Positions 17,701 through 23,700 of a stretch of DNA of 64,000 bases are shown here, in pieces. Origin of the DNA: Escherichia coli (GTDB lineage Bacteria > Pseudomonadota > Gammaproteobacteria > Enterobacterales > Enterobacteriaceae). The DNA lies in assembly GCF_024223415.1 (NCBI RefSeq), contig NZ_CP100500.1; one strand, 5' to 3'. Position numbers: made by a program. How positions within the stretch are numbered: the first letter of the stretch is position 1; every line of letters starts with the position of its first letter.

Positions 17701-20700
17701 CGGTTGGTTTACTGGAAGAGGCGTTGGTGGATGTGATTGCCGCCGACCCGATTCATCAGCGGATCTGTAAAGAGCTGGGTAAAAATCTGCCATTTACCCG
17801 TCTGGATGAACTGGCGCACAACGCGCTGGCGAAGGGGCTGATTGATAAAGATGAAGCCGCTATTCTGGTGAAAGCGGAAGAAAGCCGTCTGCGCAGTATT
17901 AACGTTGATGACTTTGATCCGGAAGAGCTGGCGACGAAGCCGGTAAAGTTGCCGGAGAAAGTGCGGAAAGTTGAAGCCGCGTAATTGAATAACGGAGCCG
18001 AAAGGCTCCGTTTCTTTATCCGCTAATTATTTAAAATTAAAGCCATCCGGATGGTTTTCCAGGCTGCCGGTCAACGCCGCGAACAGCACCGTTTTACCAT
18101 CAATCGAAAGCGCATCGTTCACATTCAGCCAGGTCAGTTTCTCTTGCGACGTTTTCTCATCAATAGTCGAGAACAGCCCCGTCATCTGATTAGATTTCTC
18201 GGACCACATCACAGCGATACGTTGCGAGCCACAGTCATGCGGTTTGCACGCGCTCATCACCTGATACGTCTCATCTCCCAACGTTACGGTTTGTGCGGGA
18301 GTATAAGTACCGCCTTTCATCACCCATGCAGGTAGCTTATGCCCTTGCACCATCTGATTAAACGCAGCTTTGGTGGTTTCGCCCTTTGCAAGGCTGCTAA
18401 TGGTTAAATCATCCTGCGCCATTGCACTGGTGGCGATGACCAGAGCGGCGACTGTCGTTATTGCCTTAAACATCATTCCTCCCGAGCTTATCCTGCCCAT
18501 GTTATTAACCTCCTAAAGCCTGGCGATAACACGATAATTTGCAAATCAGATATTTCCAATATCAGCATTTGTTATCAATTTATTCTGCGCTAAGGCAACT
18601 GCCTGATAAGGTGTTAAAGTTATAAAACCCTTCGCATAAAGGAGTTGTACACCGTGCCTGGTTTGAAGATTACGCTTTTGCAGCAACCACTGGTGTGGAT
18701 GGATGGCCCTGCCAACCTGCGTCATTTTGATCGTCAACTGGAAGGTATTACCGGGCGCGATGTGATCGTTCTACCGGAGATGTTTACCAGCGGCTTTGCC
18801 ATGGAAGCGGCTGCTTCGTCGCTAGCACAAGATGACGTAGTGAACTGGATGACAGCCAAAGCGCAGCAGTGCAATGCGCTGATTGCAGGCAGTGTTGCAT
18901 TACAAACGGAGTCTGGTTCGGTTAACCGCTTTTTGCTGGTTGAGCCGGGCGGCACGGTACATTTTTATGATAAGCGTCATCTGTTCCGCATGGCAGATGA
19001 GCATCTGCATTATAAAGCGGGCAATGCGCGAGAGATTGTGGAATGGCGCGGCTGGCGTATTTTGCCGTTGGTGTGCTACGACTTACGTTTTCCGGTGTGG
19101 TCGCGCAATCTCAACGATTATGACCTCGCCATCTACGTTGCCAACTGGCCTGCTCCGCGCTCTCTGCACTGGCAGGCATTGCTGACGGCCCGCGCGATTG
19201 AGAATCAGGCGTATGTGGCGGGATGCAATCGCGTCGGCAGCGATGGCAACGGCTGCCATTATCGCGGTGACAGCCGGGTGATTAATCCACAGGGCGAGAT
19301 TATCGCTACTGCCGACGCGCATCAGGCAACGCGCATTGATGCGGAGCTGTCGATGGCGGTGTTAAGGGAATATCGCGATAAGTTTCCGGCATGGCGGGAT
19401 GCGGATGAGTTTAGGTTGTAGTGAGTGGGTGTTGTGTTTAGGGCTGGGGAGAGTCGGGGAAGACTACGAAAGCCCGCTCTCCTGCGACCACTTTTATCAT
19501 AGGAGTGTGGAAGTGCTTTTCCATCAATCGCGATGACGTCTTTGTCATTTGATGAATGGCAGTCACGCATCCAGTTAATAAAGCACTCGTGAAATTTTGC
19601 AGGACTGATACAGGATACAACTCTGGCAATGGTATCGTGAACAGGGATACCATTTTCAAAATCACCATATTGTTTTAAAAAATCGAGATGTGTTTCCCCA
19701 AAATCCTCTATATCTTCCCAACCTTCTACACCAGAAATAACGGCACAAATAGTCAACAGAAGAATATCTGACAATTTATGTTCCACTTTCCAGGCTTGAC
19801 TGTAATCGGGAATAATAGAAATATGTTCCATCAATTTTTTAAGTTCCATTTTTTCTCCTTATTTATGTAAGGAGTATTTGATCATGTATAAGCAATAAAA
19901 AACAGCTTCAGGTAATGAGGAATATCTCAATTTTTAAACATAAAATGCGAATTATTTAGTATAAAAAGTGTACTTCTGATGATCTTTCCCTGGATTTACA
20001 TTAGGTTGGTTATTTTCCATACCCACAACTATATTTTCTCTCTGAATTTAATACGTGCAAGACAATCGCAGCACTCTAACTGACTTCGATGTGATTTGAT
20101 GTTCAGAAAAATCCCTCATTAGATTATTATCATGAAATACAGCCAATTATCTTTAGTTTTTATATTTCTCAATATATTCTTTTGAAAGGATTCGCGCCTT
20201 TTCAAACTCTTCAGGAGTTAATCTATTTTCCATCTTCAATTTATATTGAACACTTTTATCAAGTCCATGAGCGTATGCGGCACTGAACCAGGCATATGCC
20301 TTTTTATTATCGAGTGGTAACTCTTTCGTGCCTACGGAATAGATTAATGCAAGATTATGTTGTGCAACAGGATCACCATGTGTGGCTGACTTTCTTAACA
20401 GTTCTATTGCTTTATATTTATTTACAGTAATCCCACCCAGTCCTTCATAGTAAAAGATACTTAGTGCTGATTGTGCTTTTATGAAACCTTGACTTGCCGA
20501 TTTATCATACCAAAAGGCGGCTTTATTATAATCCTTTTTAATAATAACGCCTTCATAATAGAGTCGCCCTAAATGATACTGAGCAACCTTATCCCCTTGC
20601 TCCGCAGCGATACGATACCACTTATCTGCCAGATCTTTTTTATTAGTCTCATCATATAGTAAAGCAAGGTTAGTTTGAGCCGTAACTAATCCAGAATTTG

Positions 20701-23700
20701 CAGCTTTATTTAACCACGCTATGGCCTTACCATAATCTCTTATCACGCCACTCCCTTTACTATATAATACTCCTAAGTTTCCCTGCGCTTCTGGAAAACC
20801 TTTTTCAGCTGCCATTTGATAACATTCAAATGCTTTTTCATAATTTTGAGACACCCCATAACCATGAGCATACATAACACCGAGGTTATACTGAGCCTCT
20901 GTCAGCCCCTGTTTTGCTGCAAGCGAGTACCAATATACTGCATCTTTATAACTCTGGATTCCTTCAGAACCACTTCGATATAACTCCGCGAGTTTAAATT
21001 GCGCAGTAGCATCTCCCTTATCAGCATCTTTTCTTATATATGTCATTTTATTGGAGGCTGCTGTGTCTTCTGTCACCCCAATTGCAACAGGAATACTCAA
21101 CACTTCAAAAAAAAAACATCACAACAACACACATTAATATTTTTCGATTATTTTTTATCGGCATCTTTTTTATCATCACCTTTAAATTTATCTACCGCTT
21201 CACTAGAAGTCATGTCAGTAATATAATCTCCAAATGCATTTTCAGGCACAAAGGGCAATTTACCCAAAGTTGCACCTAATAATTCCTCCGCTCCTGTATC
21301 AGCAGCAGCATAAACACCAGATTTAAAATCCCCTCCCTTACTTAAAAATGACAATCCCATTTTCAAAGCTATTTTCTCAACAAACGTTTTTCCCGCTCCC
21401 CAAGAACCACCTAAAGCACATAGCGCCAACTCGGATTTATCCGGCATCTTATGATCAGACATATAGTCAGTCGTAGCAACCGCACCACATGAACTAAGAC
21501 TTCCAATTGCTATCTCCCCCCATGTAAGAGTCCCCCCTTCTAATGCAGCCGCACTTGCTACTGGCTCGGTAAATACTACTCCGGCAATAACAGGAGGCAG
21601 TAAAGCCCATCCTTTTACATAATCGTCTAATGGATTATACACTCCACGCATACTTGAAAAATCATCCAACGCTTTAAATTTTTCTTCATCTGACAGGTTC
21701 GGGGCGAATCCAACATTAGCCCCCTGCATAGTGTTATAATAATTAGTTCCAAATATCATTTGCGGCGTTACATTAGCTAACCCCAACGGATCTATATGTT
21801 CAATAGGATTGAGTGGGTACTGGTAAGGATTTAATCCTCCTTCCAGCCCAATCGGGTCCTGGGTGATATACCGTCCCTGCAACGGGTCATAGTACCGGTG
21901 ACGGTTGTAATACAGCCCCGACTCCTCATCATACTGCTGTCCCGGCAGACGGTACGGCTGTTGCAGGTGCTGCGCGCTGGTTTCGCCCAGCAGGTTTCCC
22001 CACTCGTCATACTCCCCCTGCCACGCCGTTTCCCCTTCCGGGCTGATGAGCGCCTGCGGCAGTCCCCGGTGGTCGCAGTGGTAAAGATGAAGTTTCCGCT
22101 CCGGGATGTATTCCGCCTCCAGCTGCGCGGCCATCTGCTCCGCCGTCAGCCCGCACTGCGCAAGCCATGCCTCACTCTCCGCACTCACCGCTCCCGCGCG
22201 CAGTTCCCGCTCCAGCCTCCCCAGCATCACCGACAGCTCCGCCGGTAGCGTCACACCCGTGTCCTCTTGCAACACCTCCGCCAGGCTCCGGTGCCGCGCC
22301 TTCGCCTGTTCGCCATTCTCTGTTTCGATTCTCAGGAGCGGCGTGAAGCTCCCCGGCTGGTATACCGTCTGGATACGCGTGGTGCCGGTCTGTATCGTCG
22401 TCAGCCTGTCGCCGTCCCACCCGTACCATGTCACCTCCGGTTTACGCGACAACGACATCCACCCCGTCAGGTCACGCTCCCGCCGCCATACCCGTTTTCC
22501 CGTCCGGCGGCCCAGCGGGTCATAGAGGTAACGGCTCTCCACCTGTGGTTCGCCGTGCTGTATCCGCGTGTAGAACACCAGGCGGTGCTGGCTGTCGTAG
22601 TGGTAGTGGTGGGTCCGCTCGTCGTGCATCCGGATAACCCCTTCCGGGATGCGGTCCGTCTTCTCCGCCAGCCTGCCGTATTCATCGTGGCGGTAGACAT
22701 AGTGCGCATCTTCCGCGATGCGGTTATCCGGCCACGCCGTGAGCGTGCTGTCCGGGTGCAGTTCCGGGTCCGGCAGCCGGTTTCCCGCCGGGTCTGTTGC
22801 ATACGGGATATCGATATCCAGGTTCGCCGCCGTGGTGTGGACGCCCGTCAGCCTTCCCGTGTCACTGTAACGGTACTCCCGGCTCTCCTGCGGGCCGCTG
22901 ATGCGGATTAGCTGTCCGTTGTCGTTCCAGTCGTAGTCACGGTCAAGCTGCGGGAGGTTCAGGTGCCTGCTCCGGAGCTGGCCGCTGGTATTCCAGGCGG
23001 TGGCAAGTTCATATGCCTCCCCGCCGAAGCTGCGGGCCGTCTCACGGTGCAGCCGGTCCCGCGTGTACTCGACCAGTGGCGTTCCGCCCAGCTTCATCCC
23101 CGCAAGATAACCGCTGCCATACGTCAGCCACTCTACCGGCGGCAGACCGTCCGGCTCCTGACGGGTCGCCAGTCCCTGTTCGCTGTACGCGTGCCCCGTC
23201 TCATGCTCCCACAGCATCTCCCCCGTCTCCGGGTTCTCCACCGTCTGCCGTTCGCCCGTCAGGCGGCCTTTATCGTCATAGCCGTAGTGGACCGCCACAC
23301 GGTGGCCTTCACTGGTATGGCTGATGGTGGTTAACCACCCGTGCTCATCATACTGCCACTGCTCCGCCGGGTCGCCGTTCACCGTCCGGTGCGTGATGCG
23401 GTCCGACGCATCGTAATGCCAGAGGGTGATAAGTCCCTCATCTTCACTCTGCGTGAGTTTTCCGGTCAGGTCATAGTGGTAACGTTGCGTCCGCCCGTCA
23501 AAACCGCGCTGTTCAGTCAGCCTGTCCACCGGGTCATACCGGAACGTGGACTGGCTGCCGTTCTCGTTGGTCAGCACGGTGATGCGCCCGGCAGCGTCAT
23601 ACCCCATGCTGCGCGTAAGACCGCCTTCCGTCACACTCACCGGACGCCCGCGTTTATCATATTCGATGGTGCTGCATTTACCGTCCGGTGATATCGTTGC

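Follow-up and report, generated by a model that had tools for sequence, protein, structure and literature searches.

Downstream of the Rhs effector gene in a type VI secretion locus of Escherichia coli lies a gene for a Sel1-repeat protein, and the arrangement raises the question of whether this protein is the immunity partner of the toxin at the Rhs C-terminus and, if so, in which compartment it would act. An earlier note on the window (the whole 64,000-nucleotide stretch of contig NZ_CP100500.1 that was analysed) had proposed it as the candidate cognate immunity protein and suggested that it acts in the cytoplasm. The locus is of the hcp-vgrG-rhs type, with tss genes adjacent; in the near-identical NCTC10444 record the rhs gene is annotated as 'RHS element core protein' and stands beside the genes for VgrG and Hcp and tssB-tssK. 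The parts that matter here, in window coordinates, are the following.

19322..19849, minus strand: ORF, remnant of an ISAs1-family (H-rpt) transposase, which bounds the cassette and adjoins yafV
19850..20152, no strand: AT-rich spacer at the end of the low-GC cassette, its longest ORF on the gene strand at most 32 codons
20153..21103, minus strand: putative immunity protein, Sel1-repeat domain; 316 codons, counted from an internal GTG and equal to residues 21-336 of the intact protein
21105..21164, minus strand: detached Sel1 leader of 20 codons (19 residues, then E), from an ATG at 21164 to a TGA stop created by the frameshift
21107..21116, minus strand: homopolymer of ten T on the coding strand (T10); with T9 or T12 the leader is in frame with the repeat domain
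21148..25536, minus strand: ORF, Rhs effector gene, 1462 aa, 3' of vgrG and hcp and adjoining them
21151..21777, minus strand: C-terminal region of Rhs (209 aa), which follows DPLGL and consists of a ~52-aa linker and then the toxin domain
21151..21621, minus strand: toxin domain, 157 aa, YVKGW...DADKK, Gly/Ala-rich, family unassigned

The Rhs gene has the anatomy of an Rhs/YD-repeat type VI effector: its core matches the RHS family (PF03527) and ends in the PxxxxDPxGL cleavage motif (an 11-residue stretch with DPLGL), after which comes the variable toxin, and vgrG is adjacent. By eye, the N-terminus looks PAAR-like. At the C-terminal region the GC content drops from ~0.62 to ~0.44, and it stays at 0.30-0.44 over ~19600-21800, compared to 0.62-0.69 in the rhs core, so that one low-GC segment spans both the Sel1 gene and the toxin region. 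ORF calls and the GC profile agree with the earlier placement of the 316-aa frame on the same strand, 44 nt beyond the rhs stop codon (21148-21150, minus strand) and within this segment, and the H-rpt remnant noted downstream is annotated as an 'ISAs1 family transposase, incomplete' pseudogene in near-identical E. coli records. No further ORF was found between or after the toxin region and the Sel1 gene, and the downstream spacer of ~300 nt holds no hydrophobic ORF. A promoter scan returned 11 sites against 7.6 +/- 2.8 expected, which is not above background, and downstream of the Sel1 gene a terminator scan of the same strand found none. Together, the Sel1 gene and the C-terminal region of Rhs probably form one mobile toxin-immunity cassette that recombined onto the conserved Rhs core of the E. 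coli type VI locus.

The downstream protein belongs to the Sel1-like repeat family, with tandem helix-turn-helix repeats of ~36 aa that match the family profile. Pfam (PF08238) finds six repeats, at E-values from 3.7e-12 to 2.4e-4, and the seventh of the roughly seven repeats first counted is only partial. An AF2 model of the Sel1 part is a helical repeat solenoid of ~16 helices with pLDDT ~90. The 316-aa frame, however, falls short of the native gene. The leader that it is missing is encoded by a 24-codon ORF at 21105-21179 (minus strand), and this leader is out of frame with the repeat domain only because the T-run is ten long, one more than in the T9 allele. The native start at 21164, which overlaps the rhs stop by 17 nt, is the annotated start of the T9 allele; that allele is annotated as a 336-aa protein (WP_001695458.1), the T12 allele encodes 337 aa, and the 316-aa form is on record as 'tetratricopeptide repeat protein' (WP_001312555.1), an accession that is the frameshift-truncated form of a 336-aa protein which, judged by its leader, is exported. 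Among 32 E. coli genomes that carry the cassette, the tract length, as derived from match length, is T9 in 27, T10 in four and T12 in one; in the six loci where it was read, the counts are three, two and one, respectively.

The restored N-terminus reaches a 19-residue hydropathy maximum of 2.54, and every homologue repeats the pattern of an export leader, with two or three Lys/Arg, a hydrophobic stretch and then an acidic stretch. It is therefore only for the frameshifted T10 allele that the claim of a missing signal peptide holds; the intact gene has a leader, which is detached here. In the product of the intact gene and in all four homologues the N-terminus is basic, with a hydrophobic segment behind it; it is predicted to be a signal peptide or an anchor with its own end in the cytoplasm and the repeat domain is predicted to be periplasmic, which lends no support to the proposal of cytoplasmic action.

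It can be asked whether the allele in the window is simply a real pseudogene, in which T10 abolishes export and the lineage has lost immunity or is losing it, whatever the ancestral function. We regard this as possible, though the doubts outweigh it. T10 is found in four independent assemblies as well as in the window, neither the internal GTG (with the T-run upstream) nor the ATG at 21046 has a ribosome-binding site recognisable by eye, and the cassette decays elsewhere too, by a nonsense codon in the toxin of strain Santai and by IS insertions in two strains. On the other hand, homopolymer length is the commonest error of long-read assembly, and T9 occurs in strains that are otherwise 100% identical over 2.6 kb; across the 32 E. 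coli carriers the 951-nt Sel1 body shows 100.0% identity and has no other lesion. Slippage in transcription or translation on a U10 run could also restore some full-length product. Moreover, the toxin gene and tssG look intact in the window, so that loss of immunity should be costly; an intact toxin and tssG beside a frameshifted leader fit poorly with an immunity gene that is essential, unless T10 arose in the assembly, slippage corrects it, or the type VI system is silent. Should the extra T be real, a +1 slip from T9 to T10 in the leader would have uncoupled the leader from the repeat domain, and the strain would make at best a poorly translated, non-exported protein and would probably be deficient in immunity.

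Whether the Sel1 gene belongs to the toxin at all was addressed by following the toxin domain across five lineages in which it is at least ~45% identical, namely E. coli, Salmonella and three Enterobacterales contigs from metagenomes; three of the five are decayed.

Lineage 1, E. coli: full-length Rhs, then the Sel1 gene
Lineage 2, Salmonella (L006): degenerate orphan cassette; toxin 73% and Sel1 76% identical
Lineage 3, L017: end of an Rhs gene; toxin 61% and Sel1 58% identical; the Sel1 start overlaps the toxin stop
Lineage 4, L013, a genome in which the fuc operon matches that of E. coli at only 78% identity: orphan cassette behind a different Rhs and the 85-aa partner of that Rhs; toxin 56% and Sel1 36% identical
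Lineage 5, L020: broken orphan toxin and a Sel1 gene truncated by a transposase, adjoining yafT

A Sel1-repeat gene stands directly after the toxin in all five, three of which are orphan cassettes, and a signal peptide or membrane anchor is predicted at the Sel1 N-terminus in every one. In the window, as in L006, L013, L017 and L020, the Sel1 gene is immediately downstream on the same strand, in a coupled or overlapping frame, and, as the orphan cassettes show, what it is linked to is the toxin domain and not the Rhs core. Conversely, a search of 5.8 billion proteins returned close Sel1 homologues only at loci of this toxin. The consistent pairing of C-terminal homologues with Sel1 proteins, which had been suggested as a check, is thus what is found, and it bears out the Sel1 protein as the candidate immunity partner. 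In strain Santai the toxin has a nonsense codon while the Sel1 gene is intact (T9), and this loss of the toxin with retention of the Sel1 gene was counted in favour of the immunity reading. Taken together, the pairing, the cassette layout and the leader indicate that the Sel1-repeat gene is very probably the cognate immunity gene of the Rhs toxin, an assignment that is made on genomics only.

One exception concerns the point that homologous C-terminal domains might be paired with a different, small immunity gene: a distant relative, with 28% identity in the toxin domain, has an 81-aa two-helix membrane protein after it and no Sel1 gene, while the close homologues all have Sel1. This relative, P0004, had appeared from a word-index search to be a close homologue with a partner of another kind, at 47% identity, but that identity sits in the shared linker, and on realignment the toxin domain itself came to 28%. 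The linker of ~52 aa is ~75-80% identical to the linkers of Rhs C-termini with other toxin domains, and in two cassettes that share it (L002 and L007) the C-termini are followed by two-helix membrane proteins of 81 and 85 aa. One might accordingly envision that immunity is really conferred by a small membrane protein of the kind seen in those two cassettes, as is usual for pore-forming effectors (PMC6889166, PMC12669606), with the Sel1 protein as an accessory chaperone or adaptor. We consider this very improbable. No such ORF occurs in the window, where the Sel1 gene begins before the toxin frame has ended and the 300-nt spacer lacks a hydrophobic ORF, nor in L006, L013, L017 or L020. Known adaptors are cytoplasmic and bind the N-terminal parts of effectors, whereas the Sel1 protein has an export leader and is linked to the C-terminal toxin.

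A second possibility is that the Sel1 protein, periplasmic or secreted, has a role of its own, for example in host interaction or in the envelope, and merely travels with the Rhs cassette. Among sequences with a solved structure it matches EsiB/c5321 of E. coli best (E = 3e-77), a protein reported to bind secretory IgA (PMC3735183), and Sel1-like proteins of Salmonella SPI-19 have been linked to infection, and one of Klebsiella has been proposed as an effector (PMC12469244). The similarity to EsiB, however, is at the level of the repeats, and close orthologues occur only beside this toxin domain, in five of five lineages including orphan cassettes, with overlapping or abutting starts; a passenger would not be expected to stay with one toxin domain while the Rhs core changes. 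An independent role is thus unlikely, and we return to the Sel1 protein as the immunity partner.

As for the toxin, the 157-aa domain has no significant match in Pfam, NCBIfam or the sequences of solved structures, and one member of its family matches a phage holin family weakly (E = 0.02), a match that was given no weight. It is very rare, with 11 matches among 1.84 billion representative proteins, and an alignment-based scan of 100,044 species-representative genomes found no relatives. Gly and Ala make up 23% of its residues, its helices are moderately hydrophobic (no segment reaches classical transmembrane hydropathy, the maximum being 1.51), and two Cys are invariant in the clade paired with Sel1. 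AF2 gave a pLDDT of 38.9 for the C-terminal region with an alignment of eight sequences; in a Sel1-(GGGGS)6-toxin fusion, modelled with an alignment of four paired sequences, the Sel1 part was confident and the toxin part unimproved (pLDDT 22-50), so that the model lends no support to a complex.

Two enzymatic readings were considered for the domain. That of a P-loop nucleoside-monophosphate kinase was rejected: a GxxGAGK[T/S/G] motif, suggestive of the P-loop of adenylate kinase, is present, but its Thr/Ser is not conserved in the family and the Walker A pattern GxxxxGK[ST] in a kinase core is not found; a toxin-profile search of solved structures hit only NMP kinases, at E = 0.03; in profile-profile comparison with hhalign, against hand-typed kinase sequences, the probability was only 5% for Adk of E. 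coli and 4% for AroK, across ~30 residues; and the domain is too short for the NMP kinase fold. A phospholipase of the PLD family, as in effectors of the PA5086-88 type, finds no PLD match in Pfam or NCBIfam.

The location of an immunity protein usually reports the site of action of its effector (PMC12669606), and the Sel1 leader makes the periplasm or the inner membrane the most likely place for the toxin to act. We propose that the 157-aa toxin, delivered by the type VI system, would act there in the target cell, our best guess at its mode being perturbation or depolarisation of the membrane, because of its Gly+Ala content, its moderately hydrophobic helices, the invariant Cys and the two-helix membrane partners of Rhs C-termini with the same linker. 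The Sel1 protein would be translated from the start that overlaps the rhs stop and exported or anchored by its hydrophobic leader, and the solenoid in the periplasm would bind and sequester the incoming toxin, so that sister cells are protected. There is precedent for a glycine-zipper membrane toxin being neutralised by a soluble protein that sequesters it (PMC12744356). This interpretation as a whole, namely a mobile toxin-immunity cassette with an envelope-acting toxin and an exported Sel1 immunity protein that is frameshifted in the window, is in our judgement the probable one.

Possible functional analogues of the toxin are the pore formers Tse5 (a P. aeruginosa Rhs effector) and Serratia Ssp6 and Ssp4, small helical type VI toxins whose target, approached from the periplasm, is the inner membrane (PMC9637101, PMC10684867, PMC6889166, PMC12669606). 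The search of solved-structure sequences showed no sequence similarity to any of the three, and pore formation enters here as an analogy only. Tsi5 is a membrane protein rather than a Sel1 solenoid. The same is true of Sip6 and Sip4 (PMC6889166, PMC12669606).

Sel1-repeat immunity is already known in type VI systems, and the present Rhs case adds to a known kind, so that the view of a large repeat protein in the immunity slot as unusual was overstated. In Klebsiella pneumoniae, Sel1E neutralises the type VI effector VgrG4, as shown by co-expression, and its localisation was reported as inconclusive (PMC7108748). Like the protein described here, Sel1E (likened by description) is a Sel1-repeat protein of ~300 aa or more downstream of a type VI toxin. 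Several Sel1 genes cluster at the Klebsiella locus, and the toxin there is a DUF2345 C-terminal extension of VgrG, unrelated in sequence, and not an Rhs C-terminus. PMC7216683, citing Yang et al. 2016, gives PA5087 and PA5088 of P. aeruginosa as Sel1-repeat immunity proteins. As described there and in PMC7108748, the PA5086-PA5088 proteins resemble the present case in being Sel1 solenoids that serve type VI immunity by directly binding an envelope-acting effector; their cognate toxin, however, is a PLD phospholipase, and the matches of our protein to their structures 5jkp and 5jjo (E = 3e-13 and 2e-11) are generic to Sel1 repeats and far weaker than that to EsiB. Alike in setting are the Sel1 or TPR genes that follow Rhs and are predicted to confer immunity in E. 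coli EDL933 (RhsAI z5018, and z0269 at the type VI locus) and in Salmonella SPI-6 and SPI-19 (PMC7216683, PMC11669294). These too lie directly after an Rhs or PAAR toxin in Enterobacteriaceae, and all are in-silico assignments, but their toxin domains are different and the tabulated TPR candidates are reported without a signal peptide. A literature search on the protein accession numbers used here returned no match.

Compared to those earlier Rhs cases, which were predicted only, the locus offers a well-supported genomic case of Sel1-repeat immunity for an Rhs effector, and a rare, uncharacterised Rhs toxin domain gains a candidate partner and, in the cell envelope, a likely place to act. A more far-reaching proposal, which we put forth as a speculation with the odds well against it, is that the 157-aa domain founds an undescribed family of type VI toxins acting in the periplasm or membrane and sequestered by an exported Sel1 solenoid, an unusual solution compared to a small membrane protein, with distant relatives that have membrane-protein immunity, and that the T9/T10/T12 tract would be a slippage-prone on/off switch for the export of immunity. 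In practical terms, the choice of allele matters when the pair is cloned for co-expression rescue or pull-down, where the 316-aa truncated form would probably fail against a periplasmic toxin.

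The Sel1-repeat protein encoded directly behind the Rhs toxin is probably its cognate immunity protein, and comparison of the pair across lineages supports this reading. The table below was built by tracing HMMER matches of the toxin to their contigs; the L numbers denote retrieved comparison loci.

Toxin and Sel1 genes at the comparison loci (percentages are sequence identities of the toxin and the Sel1 protein)
Salmonella (L005/L006): orphan frameshifted Rhs C-terminus, then directly a broken Sel1 gene; toxin 73%, Sel1 76%; Sel1 N-terminus MAIKNSRKILVCLALAFFFEMLHVDNAIG
L017: end of an Rhs gene, with the Sel1 start overlapping the toxin stop; toxin 61%, Sel1 58%; Sel1 N-terminus MIIKNKKIWLYIMPALFLWGSC
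L013: orphan toxin copy and a 350-aa Sel1 gene; toxin 56%, Sel1 36%; Sel1 N-terminus MANIKNKKHTPMAILIIATVFFITLISVYFWQFL
L020: broken orphan toxin with a Sel1 gene behind it, next to yafT; toxin ~45-49% (fragments); Sel1 N-terminus MKKISIALLFIILFAGVICFF

With E. coli included, a Sel1 gene directly follows the toxin in five of five lineages, which answers the question raised in the earlier note of whether homologues of the toxin domain are paired with Sel1 proteins elsewhere, and supports its immunity proposal at the genomic level. In three of the five, toxin and Sel1 gene have travelled together as an orphan cassette that is no longer joined to a full Rhs gene. At L013 the orphan toxin is preceded, in order, by vgrG, an Rhs gene with a different toxin and the 85-aa partner of that Rhs, and at L020 an ISAs1-like transposase interrupts the Sel1 gene at residue 213; since the fuc operon on L013 and the yafT flank of L020 are only 78% and 69% identical to E. 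coli, respectively, these two loci come from other Enterobacterales. No further conserved ORF was found between or after the toxin and Sel1 genes. A reverse search of 5.8 billion proteins with the Sel1 protein returned close homologues only from E. coli, Salmonella and L017, all other matches being generic repeat-level similarity. In E. coli O157:H16 Santai (L010) a GAA-to-TAA nonsense codon (ADTGAE*, ~window 21285) removes 45 aa from the toxin, whereas the Sel1 gene is preserved intact, with nine T in the tract described below (T9); loss of the toxin with retention of the immunity gene is the usual pattern of such cassettes. Five more carrier records have no RHS annotation across the junction.

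The Sel1 gene of the window is itself interrupted near its start, as seen from the following features.

20153-21103, minus strand: Sel1 ORF, 316 codons from GTG
21105-21179, minus strand: short leader ORF, basic then hydrophobic, its stop produced by a run of ten T (21107-21116)

The Sel1 ORF contains six significant repeats and one partial repeat by Pfam, and solved Sel1-repeat proteins match it strongly (EsiB/c5321 at 3e-77; PA5087, 5jkp, at 3e-13). The rhs stop is at 21148-21150, with 44 nt from there to the Sel1 GTG, and GC, 0.62-0.69 in the rhs core, drops to 0.30-0.44 across ~21800 to 19600. The ORF, its repeats, the 44-nt gap and the low GC are thus as first described; the coordinates originally assigned to the gene do delimit an existing ORF, but that ORF is a truncated frame and not the native gene. 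The minus strand reads ...GAT AAA AAA TAA (stop) across the rhs stop, and the leader codons are ATG CCG ATA AAA AAT AAT CGA AAA ATA TTA ATG TGT GTT GTT GTG ATG TTT TTT TTT TGA. With nine T, the leader frame continues into the Sel1 ORF. This T9 allele is present in the fetched loci of XH990, O157:H16 Santai and Z1322HEC0005 and is annotated as 1011 nt and 336 aa (WP_001695458.1), with its start 17 nt ahead of the rhs stop; in AR_0085 the tract is T12 and the protein 337 aa, and SCU-316 and NCTC10444 have T10 and a 316-aa annotation. Judged from match lengths to a 141-nt probe, the 32 complete E. coli genomes carrying the cassette comprise 27 with T9, four with T10 and one with T12, and of these tract lengths only T10 breaks the frame. 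Given the T9 alleles in other E. coli genomes, the native Sel1 protein carries a leader at its N-terminus, where hydropathy over 19 residues peaks at 2.54. O78 strain 3, GPEC1446 and NCTC9112 have T9 but match the window at every other position of a 2.6-kb stretch, and the tract is absent in the more distant homologues L013, L017 and L020. The extra T of the window reflects either a +1 slip in this hypermutable tract or an error of assembly. In the window the toxin gene is intact and tssG appears to be, but the leader of the putative immunity gene is frameshifted. This may reflect an assembly error, slippage rescue at the U10 run, real decay or a secretion system that is silent. The 951-nt Sel1 body (20153-21103) is 100.0% identical in all 32 carriers, against only 98.6-98.8% for the surrounding 2.6 kb in most of them, which suggests that the cassette has spread recently or is under strong constraint.

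All five Sel1 partners begin with two or three Lys/Arg, followed by a hydrophobic stretch and then an acidic stretch. Applying the positive-inside rule to this pattern, the repeat domain is predicted to be periplasmic, either cleaved or anchored. Candidate cleavage sites lie between AIG and V in E. coli and between AIG and K in Salmonella, while the leaders of L013 and L020 look like uncleaved anchors. The cytoplasmic action suggested in the earlier note is thus not supported, as five of five partners have a predicted export-type N-terminus. Immunity proteins are normally located where the effector acts (PMC12669606), which, with a periplasmic Sel1 protein, points to the periplasm or the inner membrane as the probable site of toxin action.

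Behind the Rhs cleavage motif DPLGL lie 209 aa, made up of a ~52-aa linker and a 157-aa toxin domain that has no match in Pfam, NCBIfam or solved structures. The domain is very rare: HMMER, run exhaustively on 1.84 billion representative proteins, gave 11 matches, mostly fragments, and one genome each of 100,044 species yielded none. Gly and Ala make up ~23% of it, its predicted helices are moderately hydrophobic, and the Sel1-paired clade has two invariant Cys that might be joined by a disulfide in the periplasm. These features, together with the membrane-protein partners of the linker relatives, are compatible with a membrane-perturbing toxin, and none of them proves it. AF2 gave a pLDDT of 38.9 for the toxin alone and, for a Sel1-linker-toxin fusion, a confident Sel1 solenoid with pLDDT 22-50 in the toxin part. 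A P-loop-like motif, GxxGAGK[T/S/G] followed by LSxG (LSKGGD in the window), occurs in toxin residues ~70-157 (window 21151-21420), and a solved-structure search returned only nucleoside-monophosphate kinases (adenylate, cytidylate), with E = 0.5 when the single sequence was used and 0.03 with the family profile. However, profile-profile comparison by hhalign did not favour homology, its probability being 5% for E. coli Adk and 4% for AroK, the Thr/Ser of the motif is not conserved, and a kinase is implausible beside a periplasmic immunity protein, so that we take the resemblance as chance.

The linker recurs in other Rhs C-termini.

21622-21777: shared linker, also at 2390-3160 of L002 (the locus of protein P0004) and 535-1098 of L007 (that of protein P0005)

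P0004 is 47% identical by word-index search, and the gene behind it encodes an 81-aa two-helix membrane protein rather than a Sel1 protein. It was rejected as a close toxin homologue, since realignment places the high identity in the linker and leaves the toxin domains only 28% identical. P0005 has the same linker, a glycine-zipper-like toxin and then an 85-aa membrane protein. The ~52 aa after DPLGL are ~75-80% conserved across Rhs C-termini with different toxin domains and small membrane partners, and the linker is therefore a separate shared module; the Sel1 partner is, judging by these sequences, specific to one toxin clade.

PA5087/5088 and Sel1E are described as Sel1-repeat immunity proteins (PMC7216683, PMC7108748). 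Sel1-repeat immunity, as proposed for the E. coli protein, is established in T6SS, with Sel1E acting against VgrG4 and PA5086-88 against a PLD effector, and EDL933 and Salmonella have predicted cases in which a Sel1 or TPR gene follows Rhs (PMC7216683, PMC11669294). This kind of immunity protein thus has precedents; the novelty lies in the particular toxin domain, the conserved-pairing evidence, the export leader and the frameshift allele. By analogy with PA5087/5088, Sel1E and ExiAB, whose soluble complex hides a glycine-zipper toxin (PMC12744356), neutralisation may involve sequestration of the toxin in the groove of the Sel1 solenoid.

Several complete E. coli chromosomes, NCTC10444 and KV7 among them, match positions 19300-21900 at 100% identity; their annotated order is yafV, an ISAs1-family transposase remnant, 'tetratricopeptide repeat protein', 'RHS element core protein', VgrG and Hcp, followed by tssB-tssK, tagH, tssH and vasI. 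This order places the pair at the variable end of an hcp-vgrG-rhs module in a chromosomal T6SS locus. The cassette is carried by 32 of 5,426 complete E. coli genomes. The window is distinct from NCTC10444: 11 SNPs separate the two within the first 34.6 kb, and an indel at ~34674 affects tssG (33695-34783), which is an intact 362-codon ORF in the window but is annotated as frameshifted in NCTC10444. Upstream of ~19300, the NCTC10444 annotation (L001, 1-20000) shows a dinJ-yafQ toxin-antitoxin pair, rayT, a lateral-flagellar remnant (lafU and truncated flhA), and prfH and rtcB pseudogenes. One cassette carrier, NZ_CP104632.1 (100,861 bp), is labelled a plasmid but includes the yafV flank of the chromosomal locus; possibly it is a piece of chromosome that was misassigned.
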